Of a stretch of DNA of 64,000 nucleotides, positions 22,701 to 61,287 are shown in pieces; positions within the stretch are counted from its first letter, which is position 1; each line of letters opens with the position of its first letter. The notes beneath the pieces were generated by a model, which saw nothing but the letters and a program-made list of their open reading frames with translations, was not told the DNA's origin and made no database searches. Source of the DNA: Prorocentrum cordatum. Its lineage: Eukaryota. Location of the stretch: NCBI GenBank assembly GCA_963575745.1, contig CAUYUJ010000023.1, forward strand, positions 1-64,000, written 5' to 3'. The translations under genes were made by a program, and so were the position numbers.

Positions 22701-23542
22701 TGTCTCAACTGAAGTCGAGCTAGAAAGCTCTACGAGTTTCCCGGCGGTAACCAAGGTTGACGGTTTACCGCCGGCGCCCAGTAATTCGAAAACGCTGGCA
22801 GGCTAGTTGGCTCGAAAAATCTCGACTGAACTTTTCACAACTTTTGCTCGGTTCAAAATTTTGTTCTCGAAATTTGACAATTCGTTTGAGCTCTAGTATT
22901 TTTTCCCGTGATATTTGATCTTATTCCCGCTCGCCATCTTGCTCTGCGCTCGATCGGATGAATATTACTATCGAAAAGCACTGTGGCGGGATCGGCTGTT
23001 TTGAGTTATCTTGATACGTGCTGACGGTTTTCTGAACATAACTCGAGCTTTAGGACAGCTACAGAGCTGGTAAGCACAGCTAATCGATGTAGAATGATTA
23101 GGCGCGTTTGGCTGTTCAATCGAGAGGTCTGAACTCGGTCTGTCAGCCGAGCTAGGTCCGCAAACCTGTTCGTATTATTCGAGTCATCTTGAACTCTCGG
23201 TTTTCTACAATTAACTCGAGCTGTAGGACAGCTACAGAGCTGATATTTACAGAAACCGATTCAGAATCCCCAGTTGCGTTTTTCTGTTGAATCCGGAGCT
23301 CTGAACTCGGTCTGCTGCCCGATCTAGAATTTGTATTGCTCGAGTCATCTTGATAAGTGGTCTCGGTTTTCTTTTCCCAACTCGCGCTGAGGGGGCTACG
23401 CTGGTGGTCACAGGAATCGATTTGAAGACATCAGGCGCGTCCGCCTGTTGAATCCAGAGCTCGGAACTCGGTCTGCTGCCCAAATTAGATCTGCAAAACT
23501 TCTATATTGTTCGAGTCATTCTCAGAAGTGCTGTCGGTTTTC
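16733..23542 (+). mobile_element. Five-level nest of B, D and A elements
   Basis: B1 (starts 16733) contains B2 (16778-22781), which contains B3 (16804-20311), which contains D (17327-18849), which contains B (17578-18679). B3 also holds D (16914-17312) and A (18864-19239). B2 also holds B (20357-21815). Confidence 0.85.
17327..18849 (+). mobile_element. Family D GC-rich element interrupted by a B element
   Basis: 5' TTCCCGGATAGC ... 3' GCTATCCGGG-TTTTGGACGCTTACAAG. Empty site TGAAAA|TTTTGTTCTCG. Confidence 0.75.
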
Positions 23543-23543
23543 C

Positions 23544-23602
23544 TGGCTCAAGGCTCAAGGCTCAAGGGTCTCAAGGGTCTCAAGGGTCTCAAGGGTCTCG
23601 AG
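23544..23602 (+). repeat. Spliced-leader-like tandem repeats at the LINE 5' end
   Basis: TGGCTCAAG-GCTCAAG-GCTCAAG-(GGTCTCAAG)3-GGTCTCGAG. The dinoflagellate spliced leader ends TTTTGGCTCAAG. Confidence 0.6.
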
Positions 23603-23775
23603 ACGTCAGGGTTCGACGTCGAACAGGGCCCACGTCAGGGCGCACACACAGGCTTGCCTCAAGCCCCCCTCTCGTGCGGTGCGTGTTTGACGTATCGCGG
23701 GGGCTGTGTTCACATTGAATCCTCGCTCTCGTCCTTGATATCAAGATATCGTGGGGATCGCAGGAAGATCAGGAT

Positions 23776-25272
23776 TTGTCTGGATTTTACAAAAGACCAC
23801 TGTGGGCGGTTGGATTGAAAACGGACTCGCAGGGAGCATATATTATACCGTCAGAAGACGATCAGAGTGAATATTTCACGTCAGCTGACTTTGGTGTGGA
23901 TAGTGACCCACATCCGTGTGATTGGTTGAAAGACACATCAGCTACTGTGCCGCGATTAACGACGCAGGAGAAGAGGGAAGATCAGATAGCACTTGAGTTG
24001 GAAATTTCCCCACCAGAGGCATTTGTTCAGCAGGAGGCGTACGATTTCAAGAAGATTGGGCAATCAGATAGATATCAGGCTGCACTTCACACATTGCGTA
24101 CAGTCAAAGAGAGGAATAAACGACGTCCGTCAGCAATCATGGCGGATGACAAAGCAGAAGATAGCAAAATGGGAGGGAATGCGAGTAGTGAATGGTTGAG
24201 AGAGGTGAGGGCGAAAGGGGAGGGCAAAGGCTCCAGTGCTTCGAGTGGTCTGGCCGCGGCTTCCAGTGCTGCTGTCCAGGCGCCTCATTTAGCTACAGCC
24301 CAAGTCCCCAATGCTACGAGTGGTCTGGCCGTGGCCCAAAGTGCTGCTGTCCAGGCGCCTCAACCAGCTACAATGACGCCCGAGGAAATGTTCAGACAGA
24401 TTTTGAAAGGCCAGAGTGAAGTAACTGCGACGGTTAGTGAGTTCAAAACATCGGTTGCAGCTGATTTACATGTCATGGAGGAGAAGATTGATAGAACAAC
24501 GTCAGATGTCAAAACGTTATCGGAGCAAATGAAACAGGCCCAAGCTGACATTCAGAATCTGAAAAATGGAGACGCTCAATCTTGCGCAAGCGGTTCGACT
24601 AGATACGGATCAGGTGACGCGGGCAGTGGTGCAGGGCATAATTCGAACTGGGTACCATCATATATTGAGTTCAAAGGATGGATATCACGTGAGGGTTGGA
24701 AGAATAGAGAGATAAAACAAAGGGAGGCCATGAAACAACAGGTGCTGACCGACAACATAACGAAATTATTGGGATTGGCATCGCTGGACGCAACACATAA
24801 TGCTGCTTTTGATCATGCGAGAACTGCGGGGGAGAATACTGGCAGGTACTGGCCATACACACGGGGGCGGATCTATTTCAAAAAGGGGGCGGCAGTGGAT
24901 ATCATATGGCAGGTTCGGAATTGTTTCGACAGCGAATACAAGAGAGGAAACACTGACCTCCCACCGAATGTAAAGTTTCATGTTGAATGCGCGCCATGGA
25001 GAACACCCCATGTCCAACAGGTTGGTAAGTTCCAGAGTTGCTTTGCGGAAGTGAAGAAAACGACGGGGACCATGTGCAAGGGGGAGCCAGGGCCGCCAAA
25101 ATCATACATATGGTTTACACAAAACCCACAGGCAGATCCAGACACAAGAGTACTGATTGCTGAGTGGGGTGTACACAGCGGGTGGGCGCTACACACTAAT
25201 AATCTGAGGAGGGTGGAGCCTGAGGTGGATCAAGAGGGGTTACTCACGAAGCTCAGACAGACGAACAATTGA
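23776..25272 (+). CDS. LINE ORF1 protein (coiled coil plus probable RRM-like region); first in-frame ATG at 24139
   Basis: Long ORF upstream of APE-RT. Heptad segment VSEFKTSVAADLHVMEEKIDRTTSDVKTLSEQMKQAQADIQNLK followed by WVPSYIEFKGW. Contains a 75-bp internal duplication. Confidence 0.7.
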   Translation: MSGFYKRPLWAVGLKTDSQGAYIIPSEDDQSEYFTSADFGVDSDPHPCDWLKDTSATVPRLTTQEKREDQIALELEISPPEAFVQQEAYDFKKIGQSDRYQAALHTLRTVKERNKRRPSAIMADDKAEDSKMGGNASSEWLREVRAKGEGKGSSASSGLAAASSAAVQAPHLATAQVPNATSGLAVAQSAAVQAPQPATMTPEEMFRQILKGQSEVTATVSEFKTSVAADLHVMEEKIDRTTSDVKTLSEQMKQAQADIQNLKNGDAQSCASGSTRYGSGDAGSGAGHNSNWVPSYIEFKGWISREGWKNREIKQREAMKQQVLTDNITKLLGLASLDATHNAAFDHARTAGENTGRYWPYTRGRIYFKKGAAVDIIWQVRNCFDSEYKRGNTDLPPNVKFHVECAPWRTPHVQQVGKFQSCFAEVKKTTGTMCKGEPGPPKSYIWFTQNPQADPDTRVLIAEWGVHSGWALHTNNLRRVEPEVDQEGLLTKLRQTNN

Positions 25273-26991
25273 CGGTGCCAGTCTGCCACTCAGCTCGCGG
25301 TGGCAACTTGGAATGTCAACATGAGGAATAGCGAGCTTTTGCCAGCAATGCTGGAGTTTTGTCATTATGATGTGCTATGCTTGCAGGAGTGTCAGTACAT
25401 GTCATCGGCAGCATTTGAAGCATGTGGGTGGCAGGTGCGTTTTAGTGTGTGCCGACGAGCTGCTGTGGCCTTCAGGGGCCCATGGGCGGCGACTATTTCG
25501 GACAGTAAGTGCGGTGAGAGGTTTGCTGTTGTACAATTTGCATCTGTGGTCGTGTCCTCAGTGTACCTACCCACAGTGCAGCGGGGAGATGATAGGCTCG
25601 ATGAATATTGTGACGTTCTAGCTAAGCTGTGTGCATGCATGCAACTATGTAGCGAGCAATACCAGGGGTCCAAAGTATTGCAGTTTGTGGGGACAGATGC
25701 GCAGACGGAGCTGGAACCAAATCTCTTGGGGTTCACGGGAGAAGGATTGGAGGAGGTGTGGATGAGGTCGGAGGCGAAACATCATGAGGAGAGGAGGGAC
25801 ATGCTCGTGCGCTTTCTGAATCACTGGGGTCTTTGTGCAGCCAACACCTACGGCGTGCGACAAGTGACGCACAGGCCGTGGAGTACCAGCAGCTACTCCA
25901 GGGTGTTGGACTATGTATTTGTGCCGACACAATTTGCAGGTACCGAGGTGGCTCGGACCAACTGCTCATTTGAATGCACGGTGGAATTTGTGGATCCTAC
26001 ACAGGATCGAGCGTCACGCTACAGTGACCATGCGAAGGTAGGTGTGAGGATAAAACATGTGTCGGTGCGCAAGCCTTTCGTGCGACCCAGGCCCCCGAGC
26101 CTCATCAATTGGGCCCCGGAGGATTATGAGTCAGCGAATGTGTTCAGTACACTGGCCGATGTGCAGGTACAACAACATATGAACCAACAGGGTGACATAA
26201 ATATACAAACAGTTGGACAGATGCTTGTGAGTGCTGCGACGATGTGTAGGCATACAAAGGGCAGGGCGGATACTAAACCAATCAAAAAACCTGACCAACT
26301 CGTGGACGTTGAAGCGGAGTTAAGGAGGGGTGTCTTCGGTGAGCGTAGGAAACAATTACTGAGACGTCAAAAAACACTCCGAAGAAAGTTCAGGCGGGAA
26401 CAGCTCCTCAAGGACTCCACTGGCCTCAAACATGGACCCCGTAGGTGTATCAAGGAAATGCTGTGTGACGGGATACTGACAGAAAATAAACAAAGATGGG
26501 TGGAGGAGCTCAACAAACACGTACAACGGTCATATACATGTGATGGGGAGGGAGGAGCTGCAAAGAGAGAGTTGCATCGACTACGGACACAGTGGGAGGC
26601 AGAGGGCAGAACTACGAACAGGGTCATATCTATGGGTGTGTTGCTGGGGGCTCGAGCCCGATTGAAGGGCGGCACCGCAGCGGGCTCTGATGGCCTGGTG
26701 GCGGAGATTCTCAAAGCAATACCTTGGAATGCATTGAGATTGATACGACACTCATTTCAAGAAATACATGATCATAAAAAGTCCTCACCTGATTCGTGGA
26801 GGAAGTTGTGCGTGCAGCTGATTCCAAAAATGAGCATGATCCAAACATTTGGGGAGACTCGTGCAATATCGCTGTTGAGTGTTATGAGCAAGTGGTACAT
26901 GGCGTGCCTTCTTATTCTTGTGGAGGAACATGGACATATCAAAAATTGGCGACATATGGATTCCAGGAGAGTCACAAAGTTCATCACATGA
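25273..26991 (+). CDS. LINE ORF2 N-terminal part: apurinic-like endonuclease (APE) and RT N-terminus
   Basis: APE motifs VATWNV, DVLCLQE, SVYLP, GTDAQ, LDYVF, SDH. RT N-terminal motifs AAGSDGL, SWR..LIPK, RAISLLSV. Confidence 0.9.
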   Translation, partial: RCQSATQLAVATWNVNMRNSELLPAMLEFCHYDVLCLQECQYMSSAAFEACGWQVRFSVCRRAAVAFRGPWAATISDSKCGERFAVVQFASVVVSSVYLPTVQRGDDRLDEYCDVLAKLCACMQLCSEQYQGSKVLQFVGTDAQTELEPNLLGFTGEGLEEVWMRSEAKHHEERRDMLVRFLNHWGLCAANTYGVRQVTHRPWSTSSYSRVLDYVFVPTQFAGTEVARTNCSFECTVEFVDPTQDRASRYSDHAKVGVRIKHVSVRKPFVRPRPPSLINWAPEDYESANVFSTLADVQVQQHMNQQGDINIQTVGQMLVSAATMCRHTKGRADTKPIKKPDQLVDVEAELRRGVFGERRKQLLRRQKTLRRKFRREQLLKDSTGLKHGPRRCIKEMLCDGILTENKQRWVEELNKHVQRSYTCDGEGGAAKRELHRLRTQWEAEGRTTNRVISMGVLLGARARLKGGTAAGSDGLVAEILKAIPWNALRLIRHSFQEIHDHKKSSPDSWRKLCVQLIPKMSMIQTFGETRAISLLSVMSKWYMACLLILVEEHGHIKNWRHMDSRRVTKFIT

Positions 26992-29006
26992 CGGCCCCTT
27001 TGCTGCACATGACACGTCATGCCACTCTCTGGGGAAAAGGCGAGTCGGTACATATGGGAATAATGGATATAAAGAAAGCGTTTGATCATGTCACTGTCTC
27101 GATGGTGATCCGCGCGATGGAACACCTGAGATACCCAACAGATCTGATTATTGCAATTGTGGAGCCTATGATTGGAAACACAGCAGTTTTTGATTTCCAG
27201 GATGTGTGCAGCGAAGAGATCCTGTATAACAAGTCGGTGCGAACTGGAGGGAAAGAAGGCCCAGTACTCTTCAATATTGTGTTGGAGGCAATTTGGGCCT
27301 CTATTGCTGAATCATGGGAAGCATGTCATTATGGAGTACGATTGGAAGGCGAGGGGACACAACAGGCGCTGGTCAATCATTACATATGGGCTGACAATGT
27401 GGTGCTGCTGGCATCTTCGGCGAATCAGCTGAGGAATATGGTGAGTATGTTGACCGTGGCCCTCAGACGGGCTGGTATGGACTGGAAGATTGAGAGCCTG
27501 GAGTACCTTGTTTTTGGGCTGAGACAAAACCAGGGGCCACAATCATTAGTTTGCGAACTGGGAGATGATATTTGTGCACGGGCTGGAGACCCCAGCCTAC
27601 CCTATCAATTACGTGAGGCGGTGGTTTTGCCGAGGAAAAGCGAGTGCGACATACTGGGAGTTAAATTTGTGACGAACCCGAGGGATTTCCATGCAGTGCG
27701 GCACCGTATCGATGCAGGCAGGCGGTGTTTTTATGCTGATATTAAATTCTATCGATCACGCGCGGTGAGCATGAGGGAAAAATTCAGACGGTATCAGAGC
27801 AGAGTTCAACAGATCATATGCCATGGATGTGTGGGGTGGAGCTGTAATGAACATGTGCTGAACATATTGAGGAGCTTTGAAGGAAGATGTTTGAACACAA
27901 TGCGGGGATTACATAGAAAAGAGACGGAAACGTGGGAGGAGTTCAGGGATCGCAGTACCAACAGATCCAGGGAGATGTTCAAGGAGGGGGGGTTCAAAAC
28001 GTTGGTGGAGAAAGTTGTGAGGTACAACTTTGAATTCGCCGTGGAGGTATCCCAATATAAGTGCCACATGCCGTCCACTGTGTATAGCAAATCGTGGCAG
28101 CAGACGCTGCGCTCCATGTTGCACGTATCGGGGGAGTGGACGGTGCAGAGGGATGAAATGCTGGCGGCAGTAAGTCGGACGATGTCGAGAGAGGGAACGA
28201 GACGGCTCAGAGGCAGACCACGAATCGTGGCGAGCAGCTGGCATGCACCCTTTGAAAAATGGAGGTCGCTCCTGTGGCACGACACGTGCGTTGTACCGAC
28301 GGATTGGGAGGAGTTTGTGGAACACATATCACAGATACCCAAAGTGCAGGACATGTTTGTGAGGAGGAGTAAGGAGAGGAGGGTGGGAGGGTTTGCGAAG
28401 ACACCGACAGATGACGAGTTGGCCCGACGCCTTGCAGTTATTAATGAACAGACTACGATATGGGACCCTGGGATGGAAGGTATCGCTGTTGAAATGTGCG
28501 GAGACAGTAAAACGGTCGTACAATGGTTGAGGGGAGTCTGGGCCTGTGACAACAGTGGGTATGCCAAACGGATCGCCAGGATACAAAATATCATGTATGA
28601 CGTGAGTGAACAACACAACATACGATGCCCGACGTACGGTAGGGATTTCTGGAAACATATCTATAGGGAAGCCAATGCCTATGCTGATGAGCTGACACAC
28701 CATGCGAGAGAAGGAAACTGTTACAGAATTTACAAGCACGACTATATCAAACAGAACAGGACAAACATCAAATACATCAGAGGATGCTGGGATGGTGGAG
28801 TGAGCAGTGAGGGTGCTGCAGGAGGTCACTGGATCGAAGTTGCTCCAGAGAATGGCCCGTGGACACTCGTGAGCTCAGAAGCCTACATGTTTGATGTAGG
28901 AGCCACCGTGACGGAGGCAGAATTATCTGCTGCCGAGCGCCTGTGCACAGGTGTGGAGCACATTGTTAAAGAAATTTCCTCTGCAAAGCGGAGGAGGCGG
29001 ATTTAA
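26950..29006 (+). CDS. LINE ORF2 C-terminal part: reverse transcriptase plus circularly permuted RNase H, in the -1 frame relative to the APE part
   Basis: RT motifs YGF, DIKKAFDHV, VRTGGKEGPVLFN, WADN, ILGV. RNase H motifs GDSKTVV and HIYREANAYAD, followed by WDGG..G.AGG and TEAELSA. Confidence 0.9.
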
Positions 29007-29087
29007 CTGGCTCTAGCCCTTAGGCTTGGGCGCACGCGCCCTGTGTAGCCTGACCAAACACCAAACTCGGGGCTGCAGGGCTGGTAA

Positions 29088-38240: not shown

Positions 38241-38996
38241 CGAGAACCCAAAATTGACGACAGTTACAGGTTTTGGATGACCCGCTCGGATTACCAACAT
38301 GATCTGCGGGCCCCATAGGGAGGGGGCTCCCGCCTGAGACTTCCTCGCAGTTCACTCACAGACGAGGCTCCCGCCTGAGACTTCCTCCATATTCAGGCTT
38401 GAGGAGCCCAAAAGTGACGACAGTTACAGGGTTCCGATGACCCGCTCGGATTACCAACATGATCTGCGGGCCCCATAGGGAGGGGGCTCCCGCCTGAGAC
38501 TTCCTCACAATTCACTCAGAGACGAGGCTCCCGCCTGAGACTTCCTCCAAATTCAGGCTTGACGAGCCCAAAAGTGACGACAGTTACAGGGTTCCGATGA
38601 CCCGCTCGGATTACCAACATGATCTGCGGGCCCCATAGGGAGGGGGCTCCCGCCTGAGCCTTCCTCAGAATTCACTCACAGACGAGGCTCCCGCCTGAGA
38701 CTTCCTCCAAATTCAGGCTTGAGGAGCCCAAAAGTGACGACAGTTACAGGGTTCCGATGACCCGCTCGGATTACCAACATGATCTGCGGGCCCCATAGGG
38801 AGGGAGCTCCCGCCTGAGACTTCCTCCCAATTCACTCACAGACGAGGCTCCCGCCTGAGACTTCCTCCATTTTCAGGCCTGGGGAGCCCAAAAGTGACGA
38901 CAGTTACAGGGTTCCGATGACCCGCTCGGATTACCAACATGATCTGCGGGCCCCATAGGGAGGGGGCTCCCGCCTGAGACTTCCTCACAATTTACT
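38241..38996. repeat. 160-bp tandem repeat, ~4.7 near-identical copies
   Basis: CCCGCTCGGATTACCAACAT recurs at 38281, 38441, 38601, 38761 and 38921. Each unit holds two copies of GGCTCCCGCCTGAGACTTCCTC. Confidence 0.95.
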
Positions 38997-38999
38997 CAA

Positions 39000-55893: not shown

Positions 55894-57105
55894 AAAAATA
55901 ATATGCGTCTGCCAGTAAAATTCTCGGATCCGTAGATGGGGGCATCTAGAGGTCTGAACTCGGTCTTATATTCGAGCTACGTCCGCAAAACTATTTGCAT
56001 CCTTCGAATCATTTGACAAGTCCTCTCGGTTTCCTGTACTTAACTGAAGATTTAGGAGAGCTACAGAGCTGATGCGCATATAATCCGATCCAGTATTACC
56101 CGACGCTTCCTTTTCTCGCTTCGAGAGTCTGAACTCGGTCTCATATGATACTCGAGCTAGGTCCACGAAGCGAAGATGCAAAATAAAAGAAACACGTATT
56201 TTTCGTGCTTTTTGTCTTCGCGCTTCAGAGCGATTTTTTCGTGCGCTCCGAGCAGCACCGCGCGAGAACAGAGCTCTACGAGGCTCCCGGCGTTTACCTG
56301 GTTGATGGTTTACCGCCGGATCCCAGTGATAACTTGGGGTCGGTTTTTCAATCTTTGTGCAGCATTTGAAAGTTCGTTTTAAGAACTGGTAGTGGGTTAT
56401 GCCGCGTCTGCCAGTTAAATTCTCAGGTCCGTAGCTGCAATATTACTATCAAAAGACTTGAGGGAACGGACTGTGTTTCGAGTCATGTTCGCACGCGTCG
56501 TCAGTTTTCTGTACTTAACTCGTGAGGAGAGCTACAGAGCTCATACTTAGAAACCTATTCGAAATCACCAGGCGCGTTCGTGTGTTGCATCCAGAGGTCT
56601 GAACTCGGTCATACTCGAGCCATTTCCGCAAAACTATTTGTATCCTTCGAGTCATTTTGACAAGTCCTCTCGGTTTCCTGTACTTAACTGAAGATTTAGG
56701 AGAGCTGCAGCTGGTACGCATATAAACCAATCCAGAATCATCCGGCGCGTCCTTTCCTTGCATTGAGAGTCTGAACTTGGTGTAGTACTCGAGCTAGGTG
56801 CACGAAACAAAGATGCAAAATGAAAAAACGTGTTTTTCGAGCGCCTTCATGCTTGCGAAAGCTTTTTTCGTGCGCCCCGAGCAGCGCCACGCGAGAACAC
56901 AGCTCTACGGGGCTCCCTGCGGTTACCTGGTTGACGGTTTACCGCCGGATCCCAGTATTCCCGGAGAGCTCTCTGAGAGCTAGAGGGTTTTAGAGTGGAA
57001 GCCGGACGCTGGGTGGTCCTGCCAGCAGCTCCTCCACGGCGGTTCAGGGTCCTCGCACTCGCCCGGGGTCGCGGCCCGTCTGGGGGCGCTTCCGGCACGC
57101 GTCCA

Positions 57106-60100
57106 ACCTGGAGTTGTGGATCCCAGCTGCTCCCACACATAACGGGGACGACAGTGTAAAAGGTCTGGGCGATGCCATCAGGAAGGCCAAGGCCAAATTG
57201 GAGAGCTCTTTCACTGACCGCATCGCGGCACCACTGGATGAGCAGTTTTCGTGGGCGAAGCTTGGGGCCGCCCTCTCGGACAGCATCCAGGCGCTGGTCG
57301 ACGACCCACTCATGGGCATCCTGCTGTACACCATCTCCGGACTATACCCTCACCAATGGCAAATGGGGGCCGCGCCCAGGCAACCAGGCAGTCTAGACAG
57401 GAAAACATGGAGCCACCTGGGTCACTGCCTTGACGTGGAAGTTGGGATCGACGCGAGCAACCTCGTGTACAAACTCACGTGGGCGGCCATTGTCTGGTTC
57501 CTCGGGCTCGGCACGCCATGGAACGACAAGCAGTTTGGCGTCGCGTATGAATCTCTCCCACCACTACCCCACATGGTGGGCTCCAACCGGGCCCCCAAGA
57601 GGAAAAGTCACTGCGCCCCCCGAGACACGCTCCAGCAGTTTCCAGCGGCATGGAGCACTACTACCTGCAGGTGTCGTCGGCACAGGGTGCATCCAGGGAT
57701 GGAGAATCTGAACGCCTTGCTCAATCCCGAGGGGATGAACGCAGAGCTCACAGGCACGCTTATCGGTGCTAGCGGACAGCCGCTTTCCCCCACGCACTCA
57801 GGGTACTACTTGTGGTCATGATGCTGCAGTTGCGTGAGCCCCGTGCCACGCTATGGCCCATCCCAAACCCCGAGGTCACTGGGGACATTTTCGAAGCAAT
57901 AATGGGCCTCTGCCCCCCGTGGCAGGAAGCACACAAAGAGTTCCGGACGCAGTTCGCCACGACGTGGGGCTGCCAGCTGGTGGACCTCGAGAATTTCCAC
58001 ACCAAGCTTGCCAAGGTCATACGTCATACGAGTATCCTGGCCACTTACGCCCACCACCACGAGATTGCTGGCAGGCACGGCTGTTCGAAGACGTGGGCGG
58101 GGATGGAGACGCACGAATTCACTTCGAAGCCCCCCTGCGCGTACTAAAAGACATTGTGCAGCCAGCTGACGTGAACCGGTTGCAAGACGGAGAGTGCTCC
58201 ATCTGCCTGCTTCACACTGCGCTGGCAGGGTCAGAGATCGGGCTGGGATGCCCGCGAACCATGGAGGACTTGCAGTACATAGGCGGAGGAAAGGCCATCT
58301 CCAACCACCGCCTCGACGAAGACATCCCCGCCTCACCCGCCCCAGGTACTGCGATGTCTCCCCCCGTCGTGCACGATGGGCGCTTCAGCAGGCTACAGAA
58401 GGAGGCCACTTACAACTGCGACGGATGCCACAGCGTGGGGCTCCACGGTTCTGCAGCCACCTGGGAAGACGATTGCACCCAGGAGCTACTCCCCCAGAAC
58501 CGCCTGCAGGCGCACACGAAGGGGAAAAATGGCAGATGGCTCTGCGAACGCGGTTGGGTCGCCTCATTGGAGAAGAAAGGCATTCCCCTCCCCGAGCCTG
58601 ACCCCTCGGAGCGCATCAGCAAGAAGTCCATGCAATGGCTACTGCAGGAGCATAAGCGCAGGCTACTGGACAACCGGGAGCAGAAGAGGGCGAGGGCCCT
58701 CCCATCCCTGGACAGGCTCCCACTTGGGTTGCAGGAACCAAAGGACACTGCAGCCACGGTCTCCCTCAAGGGGCTCCTACTTCGTACGCCGCGCCACTAC
58801 CGCCCCACCGGCGTAGGCACCACGCTTCCACCGCAAAGGCTATCAGACGGCAGGTTCGGTGCAGAGGCGCACCGTAGCAAATGCTACTCGGCCAAGTGCG
58901 AGTTTTGTCCCCCGCACTCCCCATGTCTCGAATGGCCTGCAGGCGCACCCGCCCTGGGGTGCTTCATCTGGCGCCCTGGAGAAGGCGCCGAGTGCAGTGA
59001 CCGCACAGGCCTCCCAGAGTGGGAAGCAATGCCATCGTTGTGGATCAAAAGACAGTGGGACGCCAGCTGGGCCTGCAGGAGATGCTTGGTGCACATCTGG
59101 GACATCGCACCCAGCACACTCAACAAGGTGCTGGACTCATGCTCGAAAGAGATGTATCCCCCCAGCCCCGTCATGGCGGCGACTAGTGAAGGCACTGAGG
59201 ACTGGGACATCTACGACATGACAGCACACCTCTCTCCTGTCAGCCCAGCTACAAACCAGGGCTCCACCGCGGGCGCCCCCCCCGGGCTCGGATCGCGGTC
59301 AGTGAGGATCCCCAATGCCAGTGCTACATTCTGGTGCGCCCTGCCTGCACTCCCACCACCCAGCGCGCCCCAGCTCCCCACGTACACGACCCTCCGCTTG
59401 GAGGGGGAGCAGTCGGGCAGCCCAGTCCGCAAACTTGTTAAGTTTCTGCTGGAATGGAACCGCGAGGTCTACATCCGATGGTCGACTTTCGGGGGGGAAA
59501 GGAACAGAGACAAAGTGGGTGAAGACAGCGATGAATCGGAATGGTCACACTACCAGCTGTTGCGCTTCCTGGACTCCATCTACGGGGACCAGATCCCCAA
59601 GAATGGACATCCCCCACTCATCCCGTGGGGCGGACAGAGAGCTGCCGCAGCCAATGCCATCACGCAGCTGGTTGGGAGGAATGAGAAGTTCCAGGAGGCC
59701 TGGCGCTCCTTCTCCGACGCGCTCAGTAGCCAAAGAGGACAATGCCCACGGCGGCAGCCGTTGGACACGCTGCACCGTTTCTTATCCCTGAGGAAGGACG
59801 ATCTCGCAGGGGGAACGCTGGAGTTCCTCGCCGGCGAACGCAACGCCGGGGGCAGCACCGGCACGGGAGACCACTCCCCCGCCGCCGTTTGGCGCAGGCG
59901 CCCACCAGCCTCGGACGGCCGCACCCCTGGCGATGGCCTCCGCCAGCAGCCCCCGGGAGCCACAAAGGCGGGCCAGGAGATACAGGAGGAACCATCCCCG
60001 GACAGGGACGCCCACGGTCATGGCGACAACCCATTCGGGGTAGACTGGGATGAGGACAATCCACCAGACAGGACCGTCTCCATGGTCGGCAGTCCCGCGC

Positions 60101-61287
60101 AGCAGGCCGAGGAAATCGAAGCCCACGGCCCCAGCGACAGAGATGGTTCCCACAGGCGGACAGCGCTGTGGACATACCCCCCTGCGAAGGAGGAAGCGGC
60201 CACCTGGGCGCCGTGCGCAACGGCCCGCCCCTGGGCGGACATGGAAAAAGTCCGTGACAACAGGGGCCTGGGAGGGACAGGGAGCAAGCCAGACTGCCGT
60301 CGGGAGTCTATCCCTGAGCTCGCCGCGTCTGTGCGCGAGACCCGCCCGGCGCCCAGCCCCGGGCAGGACAGCAGCCCTGATAGGCGGCCTCGCCCACAGG
60401 CAGACCCACTCCCACCTCCGCGTCAAGACGACCCCCTGGGAGGGCTTCCCATGTACATGAGGTCCATCGACGAGGCCGACATCCAGAGAGACGAGCCAGC
60501 CCAAGAGAAGGTCACCGGACTGCAGAAGACGCTCGGAGGCGCACTCAACGGGGTGTGGACAGCATGGGTCCGCAGGGCAGGCAGCCTGCAAGGTCTACCT
60601 TGGGTCCGCATCCATTCGGACCCCAAGAGGAACACAACGCAGCTTTGCGAAGAATTCCTGCGGGCGTCGGAAGCAGCGGGATACGACGCCTACAAGATGG
60701 TAAGGGACCACCGGCTCCGAGTGGAATGGCAAAAGGTCACTGAGAAGTACCGTGGCCTACTACAGCGCAGCGCAAGGACCAGCACACCCAAGGGGCAAGA
60801 TAGCGAGGGCCGCCCATGCCCTTGGGCCGCCAGCAGCAGGACTGTGCCCACCCCTCCGGCCCCGCCCGACAGGACAAGCTACTGCGAGCAGGCCCCGTCC
60901 TCCAGCACACGCATCGGGGCTGAGCAGCAACGCCCGTGCAGCAAGCCCAGAGCTGACACTTGCCTCGCCAGCGTGCACCGACTACAGGGATACCGCCTGG
61001 TCGAGGGCATCCAGCTCTGGAGCCCCATGGCGCTCAAGGCCGCGCTGGGAAGGATGGGGCCGCCAGGAGAGTTCATGGAGAGGCGCTGAGTGGGGGGGCA
61101 GGGAAAAGAGGACCGCTCCGAAAAGTGACGAGCAGTACGCCGACAAGCGACAGCGAGGAAGGGCACTCGCACGCTGGTAGCCCGGCAACGGACCTGACAG
61201 GGGCCCCCTGCCCAGGGCAGGGCCGACGCAGCCCAGAGCCCCCAAGGCGCACGGCCTAGGGCTCCCTTGGACAGCGTGTGACCCCCT
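57106..61287 (+). mobile_element. Unclassified GC-rich insert with a long frameshifted reading frame
   Basis: Begins ACCTGGAGTTGTGG inside the palindrome of a C element (GCGTCCA|). Unique, apparently intronless sequence. The host does not resume on the right. Confidence 0.5.
57114..61089 (+). pseudogene. Probable single ~1300-codon ORF broken by frameshifts near 57815 and 58132; unknown product with a possible RNase III-like motif, Cys clusters and repeated helical modules
   Basis: Overlapping ORFs 57114-57821, 57812-58147 and 57853-61089 in successive -1 frames. The last is 1078 codons. Confidence 0.5.

Follow-up and report, generated by a model that had tools for sequence, protein, structure and literature searches.

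A probable circular permutant of archaeal-type RNase H at the C-terminus of a LINE ORF2 in Prorocentrum cordatum

A single copy of a long interspersed nuclear element (LINE) was found with tblastn in a 64-kb stretch of Prorocentrum cordatum DNA (contig CAUYUJ010000023.1, positions 1 to 64,000; the window below is this whole stretch). Its second open reading frame (ORF2) ends in a domain that carries the two halves of an RNase H in exchanged order, and this domain is, with high probability, a natural circular permutant of an archaeal-type (RVT_3, D-E-D-R-D) type 1 RNase H. The element lies in satellite DNA. Similarity to the satellite complex breaks off at ~23542-23545 and restarts at ~29086 (blastn), and the element is thus read as an insertion of ~5.5 kb. 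Only ~80 bp of unique DNA separate the ORF2 stop codon from the returning satellite. No poly(A) was seen at 29007-29085, and the ends of the insertion, which are inferred from the interruption of the satellite, are approximate. The features of the element, from its 5' to its 3' end, are as follows.

23546-29085, forward strand: LINE insertion, unique, ~5.5 kb, within arrays of a 177-178-bp satellite.
23719-25272, forward strand: ORF1, 517 residues from stop to stop, with a coiled-coil-like middle; TGA at 25270-25272; in the frame of ORF2.
25273-26936, forward strand: first part of ORF2 (part A), with an apurinic-like endonuclease followed by the beginning of the reverse transcriptase; frame 1.
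26928-26937, forward strand: single frameshift in ORF2, frame 1 to frame 3, adjoining an A5 run.
26937-28400, forward strand: second part of ORF2 (part B), reverse transcriptase core (RVT_1, ~26955-27488) and thumb/linker region; relatives align in frame 3.
28410-28448, forward strand: upstream helix DDELARRLAVINE, AlphaFold2 helix 4-16, conserved in the closer subfamily only.
28476-28718, forward strand: head, the canonical C-half, with predicted strand 4 (28482-28502), D35 (28503-28505), helices B and D, and strand 5 (HIY).
28665-28667 and 28686-28688, forward strand: later elements of the head as predicted by AlphaFold2, namely R89 and, in helix E, the putative catalytic D96.
28710-28772, forward strand: linker between helix E, the former C-terminus, and strand 1, the former N-terminus, with a predicted strand (108-111) and helix (113-119) in AlphaFold2.
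28767-28982, forward strand: tail, the canonical N-half, with predicted strands 1-3 (28773-28889), D131 (28791-28793), and helix A with E174 (28920-28922).
28986-29006, forward strand: basic C-terminus KRRRRI and stop codon, the natural end of ORF2.

Within one open frame, VEMCGDSKTVVQWLRGVW (G34-D35-S36, 28500-28508) is followed by WKHIYREANAYADELT (28650-28697) and then, after a linker of ~20-25 residues, by IRGCWDGGVSSEGAAGG (D of CWDGG at 28791-28793), TVTEAELSAA (E at 28920-28922) and the stop codon (29004-29006). The motifs of the canonical C-half (GDS, D at 28503; H..RE.N..AD, D at 28686) therefore precede those of the N-half (DGG, TEAE). A reading made earlier from the sequence alone (the sequence-only reading) had placed swapped half-domains at 28461-28990, with four catalytic carboxylates in C-half/N-half order in one open frame. 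Direct inspection confirmed both claims, the coordinates being right within one codon and the carboxylates being D35, D96, D131 and E174. When hidden Markov models (HMMs) of the family head and tail were run against a six-frame translation of the window, one head (28476-28718, independent E-value 1.5e-36) and one tail (28767-28982, independent E-value 4.5e-24) were found in the same frame, and nothing else of note.

The two halves were compared with known RNase H families. RVT_3 matches the whole ORF with 26.1 bits and the 234-residue C-terminus with 31.9 bits, against a curated cut-off of 21.6. This match rests on the first half: 28461-28709 alone covers profile positions 63-123 (27.1 bits, E 4.2e-6), and 37 upstream residues stretch the nominal match to profile position 20 with a gain of <4 bits. 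The tail of the window copy alone (its last 98 residues) matched no RNase H model in Pfam. In a single-sequence phmmer search of PDB sequences, LC11-RNase H1 (3u3g) was matched weakly in two swapped pieces. The rotated homology that the sequence-only reading had proposed is clearer with a profile of 78 family sequences, for which the best PDB match is Halobacterium RNase H1 (4e19, E 2.6e-10). Profile positions 60-135 align to residues 134-198 of the 4e19 chain (27.5 bits; GDS on GDS, NerADalan on NERADALAN), and positions 149-217 align to residues 66-128 (13.9 bits; FDGG on FDGA, AEL on AEY). Together these two stretches span the catalytic domain in a rotated arrangement, and its catalytic motifs are matched. 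All six PDB sequences matched by the profile (4e19, 3u3g, 4h8k, 3aly, 2ehg and 3hst) are RNases HI of archaeal type. With a profile of the tail only (28 sequences), residues 69-126 of 4e19 rank first among 177,635 PDB sequences (E 0.013). The nearest neighbours of the domain in ESM feature space are the RVT_3 and RNase_H clusters (score 0.92).

Relatives of the domain were collected from protein sets. Word-indexed searches found P0001 and P0002 (51% and 32% identical across the whole region) and shorter fragments, including P0003 (83% identical), a EukProt entry labelled Pyramimonas sp. CCMP1952 (transcriptome); the permuted order is seen in P0001, P0002 and all of the fragments. Of 20 clusters looked up, one has an organism label, that of Pyramimonas sp. 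A profile search of 1.84 billion representatives returned 445 proteins with E<=0.001, 154 with E<=1e-10 and 35 with E<=1e-30; the search profile included some non-RNase H positions from P0002, so that not all of the 445 need carry the domain. The analysis covered the best 150 of the 445. With motif patterns, 52 of the 54 proteins that have H..RE.N..AD, DGG and T..AE have them in exactly the permuted order, and GDS, where present, stands before H..RE.N..AD. In the two exceptions, P0022 (cut short ahead of helix A) and P0101 (where the pattern is matched in the linker), the match lies outside helix A. Head and tail HMMs, built separately from the family alignment, were also run on 178 proteins. 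One or the other was matched in 171 (135 with both, 27 head-only and 9 tail-only fragments), with a spacing from head end to tail start of median 17 residues (range -3 to 45).

A sequence in this order could also be made of two tandem RNase H remnants, the first without its N-half and the second without its C-half, in which case the permutation would be a non-functional accident of truncation. Duplication followed by truncation is a textbook route to circular permutation, the window copy is damaged elsewhere by a frameshift, and some distant members have a short strand-like G.I.F..DG.V past helix A. However, each of the 135 relatives in which both halves are matched has a single head followed by a single tail, and no second head or tail was found among the 178 proteins at E<=0.01 (in two cases with multiple hits, a single head is broken into two matches). 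The median distance from the tail to the end of ORF2 is 11 residues, P0001 and P0003 have an equivalent basic tail at the same position, and no further half is present in any frame of the window. The order is thus kept in related copies, as the sequence-only reading had anticipated, and the arrangements that it had named as fatal, a DG/AE half upstream or a GDS half downstream, are absent from the relatives as well as from the window. Since the catalytic residues are also invariant or nearly so across divergent members (below), tandem remnants are considered very improbable. The permutation may well have arisen by duplication, with the present state since fixed and selected.

Two observations concern the ends of the domain. 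The basic C-terminus of the window copy has equivalents in P0001 (...KRRRRI) and P0003 (...RRRRRT). In many distant members a conserved strand-like motif, G-h-h-x-F-x-x-D/N-G-x-V, is found directly past helix A, where the window lineage has KRRRRI instead; carriers are P0048, P0059, P0068, P0083, P0086, P0090, P0094, P0099, P0107, P0131 and P0139. A possible relic of duplication, in which the upstream helix plus strand 4 would correspond to helix A plus the post-helix tail, was looked for with hhalign and is not supported (probability 0.3%, E 0.19). It is also unsupported by the alignment, where distant members have a basic KKxR motif in place of the upstream ELAKRLA helix of the closer subfamily.

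The catalytic positions are strongly conserved in the family alignment, in which pairwise identity over the domain has a median of 26% and a range of 16-85%. D131, G132 and E174 are present in 78/78 sequences, D35 in 73/73 (five N-truncated rows are gapped) and D96 in 76/78; R89 is kept in 76/78 and N92 in 77/78. The D-E-D-D carboxylates, and the R at the H/R position, line up with their counterparts in 4e19 and 3u3g. R89 occupies the H/R position of the D-E-D-H/R-D signature, where R instead of H is given as a mark of archaeal-like RNase H (PMC4640811). At such a low median identity, selection on the catalytic residues is evident, in line with the purifying selection that the sequence-only reading had named as a check.

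Conservation of this kind bears on a second alternative, in which the domain is permuted and folded yet is no longer a nuclease, and serves a structural role or binds nucleic acid, in the manner of the retroviral connection domain. Degenerate RNase H folds do serve as connection or tether domains in retroviruses, and the window lineage carries the basic KRRRRI after its long C-terminal helix. Connection-type domains, however, lose the catalytic carboxylates, which are kept here and are predicted to lie at the interface of head and tail, and the archaeal-type R89 and N92 are retained in 76-77 of the 78 sequences. A non-nuclease module is therefore regarded as unlikely, and the reading of the domain as a permuted, catalytically complete RNase H is preferred.

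Structure prediction was carried out with AlphaFold2. With the alignment of 78 sequences, one compact domain is predicted (mean predicted local distance difference test score (pLDDT) 96.4, predicted template modelling score (pTM) 0.91), and all five models have a pLDDT of at least 95.7. This model replaced a mediocre one from seven sequences (pLDDT 70.8), in which the region of strand 5 was unresolved. The predicted elements are a helix (4-16), a strand (28-34), two helices (37-44 and 52-72), a strand (84-86) and a helix (89-103). The linker then contributes a strand and a helix, both short, and the chain ends with long strands, three in number (125-163), and a 30-residue C-terminal helix. As modelled, these are the complement of RNase H elements, rotated.

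A second, alignment-free model for complexes was given the head (22-106) and the tail (120-201) as separate chains. The halves dock with a score of 0.78, and the best of three controls has 0.01; a mark of 0.78 is reached by 51/78 solved complexes and 2/108 mismatched pairs. Contact agreement between runs is at least 92%, and the pLDDT of the partners is at least 84. In the docked halves, strand 4 (28-34) pairs with strand 1 (124-130) in parallel register, helix A (175-182) contacts 58-64 and 39-43, and residues 35, 96, 131 and 174 are all in the predicted interface. We take these contacts to be those of the RNase H fold, whose five-stranded sheet has the order 3-2-1-4-5, strand 1 lying parallel to strand 4 and helix A packing on helix D, with the carboxylates in a single cluster. 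Two predictors thus agree with the earlier proposal that the halves fold into one domain with the catalytic residues where they meet. The docking result probably reflects likeness to solved RNase H structures, which is here the matter at issue; as it can stem from a memory of those structures, it speaks for resemblance and not for activity.

That the halves dock confidently as separate chains makes pairing in trans physically conceivable, and a dimeric mode of action has been proposed for LINE ORF2 proteins. In a domain-swapped dimer, the head of one molecule could then pair with the tail of another, with active sites forming on dimerization only. However, the single-chain model is compact and confident, with a linker pLDDT of ~97-98, and the linkers of the relatives, at their median of 17 residues, are long enough for closure within one chain. 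A swapped dimer is held to be very improbable, and closure of a permuted RNase H within one chain is preferred.

Several results weigh against a permuted RNase H. The tail alone is marginally recognizable: the E-value of its profile is 0.013, single tails match RVT_3 in 1/28 cases (E 0.049) and RNase_H in 1/28 (E 0.053) in Pfam, and no tail match to an RNase H model was found in a Pfam scan of 16 relatives and fragments. With Foldseek, neither the shallow nor the deep model retrieved an RNase H from the PDB, the matches being PelC, ribosome hibernation factors and others with template modelling scores <=0.34. With VIA-align, the best of 48,161 chains are unrelated (Z 5.2), and RNase H chains reach Z 3.6-4.0 over the head half only. 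Poor matches from order-dependent comparison are to be expected of a permutant, and are not positive evidence for one. The profile used for retrieval is collinear with the permuted order, so that canonical-order cousins rank low among its matches, and only the best 150 of the 445 were used; a search with the reverse transcriptase region for sister elements of canonical order gave two proteins only. Finally, the window copy carries one frameshift within ORF2, upstream of an RNase H part that is intact.

The rest of the element has the organization of a LINE with an apurinic/apyrimidinic (APE)-type endonuclease, ORF2 having an endonuclease and then a reverse transcriptase. The open frame at 26793-29006 (forward strand, 2.2 kb) is the second part of ORF2, and RVT_1 matches residues 55-232 of this frame with 53.2 bits (cut-off 29.6). 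The frame at 25273-26991 matches Exo_endo_phos with 25.4 bits (cut-off 24.5). In frame 1, the full-length relatives P0009, P0170, P0008, P0048 and P0176 can be aligned with 25273-26946, and tblastn with them places the change of frame between 26928 and 26937. In full-length relatives the endonuclease, reverse transcriptase and RNase H region is a single ORF of 1260-1455 residues, which terminates shortly after helix A. All have RVT_1 matches; endonuclease matches are weak or none, with a sub-threshold APE endonuclease in P0008 and P0176. The full-length relatives have no match among PDB sequences at E<=0.01, and the reverse transcriptase is too divergent to be matched by sequence to any solved one. 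Because of the frameshift, the window copy itself is probably inactive, unless the frameshift is an error of assembly.

ORF1 has weak Pfam matches only, of coiled-coil type. Its TGA (25270-25272) is followed by C, and ORF2 goes on in the same frame. No ATG stands ahead of the first endonuclease motif of ORF2, VATWNVN, and the first ATG (~25321) lies past it (region 25260-25330). This suggests that ORF2 is expressed through stop-codon readthrough or unconventional (re)initiation, unless the TGA is private to the window copy. A short microsatellite, (GGCTCAAG/GGTCTCAAG)n, is found at 23546-23600, exactly on the 5' boundary of the unique insertion, and could be part of the 5' end of the LINE or a product of the junction.

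Most of the remaining window consists of arrays. Satellite arrays with a 177-178-bp unit, often in a 355-bp higher-order period, were found on both strands between 1722 and 56800 with Tandem Repeats Finder (73-91% matches), and a second repeat of ~130-330 bp is interspersed among them. With a LINE inside such arrays, the region looks heterochromatic or centromere-like. A separate tandem repeat at 38247-38998 (160 bp, 4.7 copies, 95% matches) is unlike the main satellite. An open frame of 1083 residues lies at 57838-61089 (forward strand), with a 275-residue frame just upstream (56994-57821, forward strand). The longer frame is without a Pfam match at a threshold as loose as E 10, and without one among PDB sequences at E 0.01; it could represent a further mobile element or a gene whose family is not recognized.

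If the domain is a permuted RNase H, its chain would enter at canonical strand 4 and continue through helices B and D and strand 5 to helix E. The linker of ~20 residues would then join the old C-terminus to the old N-terminus, and strands 1-3 and helix A would finish the chain, helix A now being the C-terminal helix. Both halves would pack against each other to make one RNase H-like domain. There, D131 in strand 1, E174 in helix A, D35 at the end of strand 4 and D96 in helix E would together make up one two-metal active site. The canonical termini, like the new ones (start of strand 4, end of helix A), sit away from the catalytic face, and the rewiring would thus be tolerable. Removal of the RNA template is the role proposed for other LINE RNase H domains. 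By analogy, this domain would break down the template RNA of the RNA:DNA hybrid that arises in target-primed reverse transcription, after first-strand synthesis. With strand 4 as the entry of the chain into the domain and helix A as its exit, the tethering of the nuclease to the reverse transcriptase would change; the permutation would provide a different tether and a free, sometimes basic, end to the C-terminal helix, and the altered tether may affect the spacing of the polymerase and nuclease active sites on the hybrid.

The permuted arrangement would be the ancestral state of a large and diverse clade of LINEs with endonuclease, reverse transcriptase and RNase H, which is known mostly from environmental assemblies (ENA, JGI, Logan) and one Pyramimonas transcriptome. 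On balance, a widespread LINE clade, apparently of marine or aquatic protists, seems to have long used a permuted and catalytically complete RNase H. RNase H is among the most studied of enzyme folds, as a model in protein folding, a retroviral drug target and a recurrent module of retroelements, and among retroelement RNases H this would be the first circular permutant to occur naturally. A conserved natural permutant that is apparently active would mean that retroelements can rewire the connectivity of RNase H without losing the active site, and would offer a natural counterpart, and a test, for the effect of chain connectivity on RNase H folding. Domain databases treat the order of strands and helices as a hallmark of a family, and standard tools therefore see half a domain here; the permutation would explain why a class of environmental LINE proteins is annotated as 'partial RVT_3'.

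The domain shares most with the archaeal-type type 1 RNase H (RVT_3, PF13456), for which the comparators are Halobacterium RNase H1 (4e19), LC11-RNase H1 (3u3g), Sulfolobus tokodaii RNase HI (2ehg/3aly) and the N-domain of Mycobacterium tuberculosis Rv2228c (3hst). Both halves align with these, with the catalytic D, E, D and D matched, and FDGG, AEL, GDS..V and RE.N..AD.LA are held in common, with R for the usual H. In contrast to them, the order departs from the canonical one of strands 1-3, helix A, strand 4, helices B-D, strand 5 and helix E, and runs from strand 4 to helix E and then through strands 1-3 and helix A. A linker of ~20 residues joins the canonical termini, the connection between helix A and strand 4 is open, and helix A is long and C-terminal. 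As in other LINEs with RNase H, the domain is appended to an ORF2 with endonuclease and reverse transcriptase, and its presumed role is removal of the RNA template. To our knowledge, a statement that reflects the absence of literature matches, the RNase H domains of known non-long-terminal-repeat clades are all canonical in order. Full-text literature searches, with subscription-only papers outside their scope, found no permuted RNase H in any retroelement; they agree, without proving it, with the sequence-only reading, which knew of no such description. LINEs with RNase H include the I group (Ingi, I, Nimb, Loa, R1, Tad1, along with Loner and Outcast), the L1 of plants (with an archaeal-like RNase H), Proto1, Dualen/RandI and the oomycete Utopia (PMC4640811). 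Utopia differs in the location of the domain, which is upstream of the reverse transcriptase, and not in the order within it. The closest precedent is from CIRPIN, which describes, in AlphaFold DB, a single circular permutation relating two 'ribonuclease H-like domains' that it does not specify, and whose own literature search, as described there, gave no earlier ribonuclease case except RNase T2/BECR (PMC13552848). That pair (Fig. 5D of CIRPIN) resembles the domain described here in being a natural circular permutation within the RNase H-like fold. The main text of CIRPIN leaves the proteins unidentified and describes no tie to a retroelement, no family-wide conservation and no catalytic residues; it is possible that the pair overlaps the LINE family of the window. 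RNase H in LINEs is as such already known, and it is the permuted topology that would be new.

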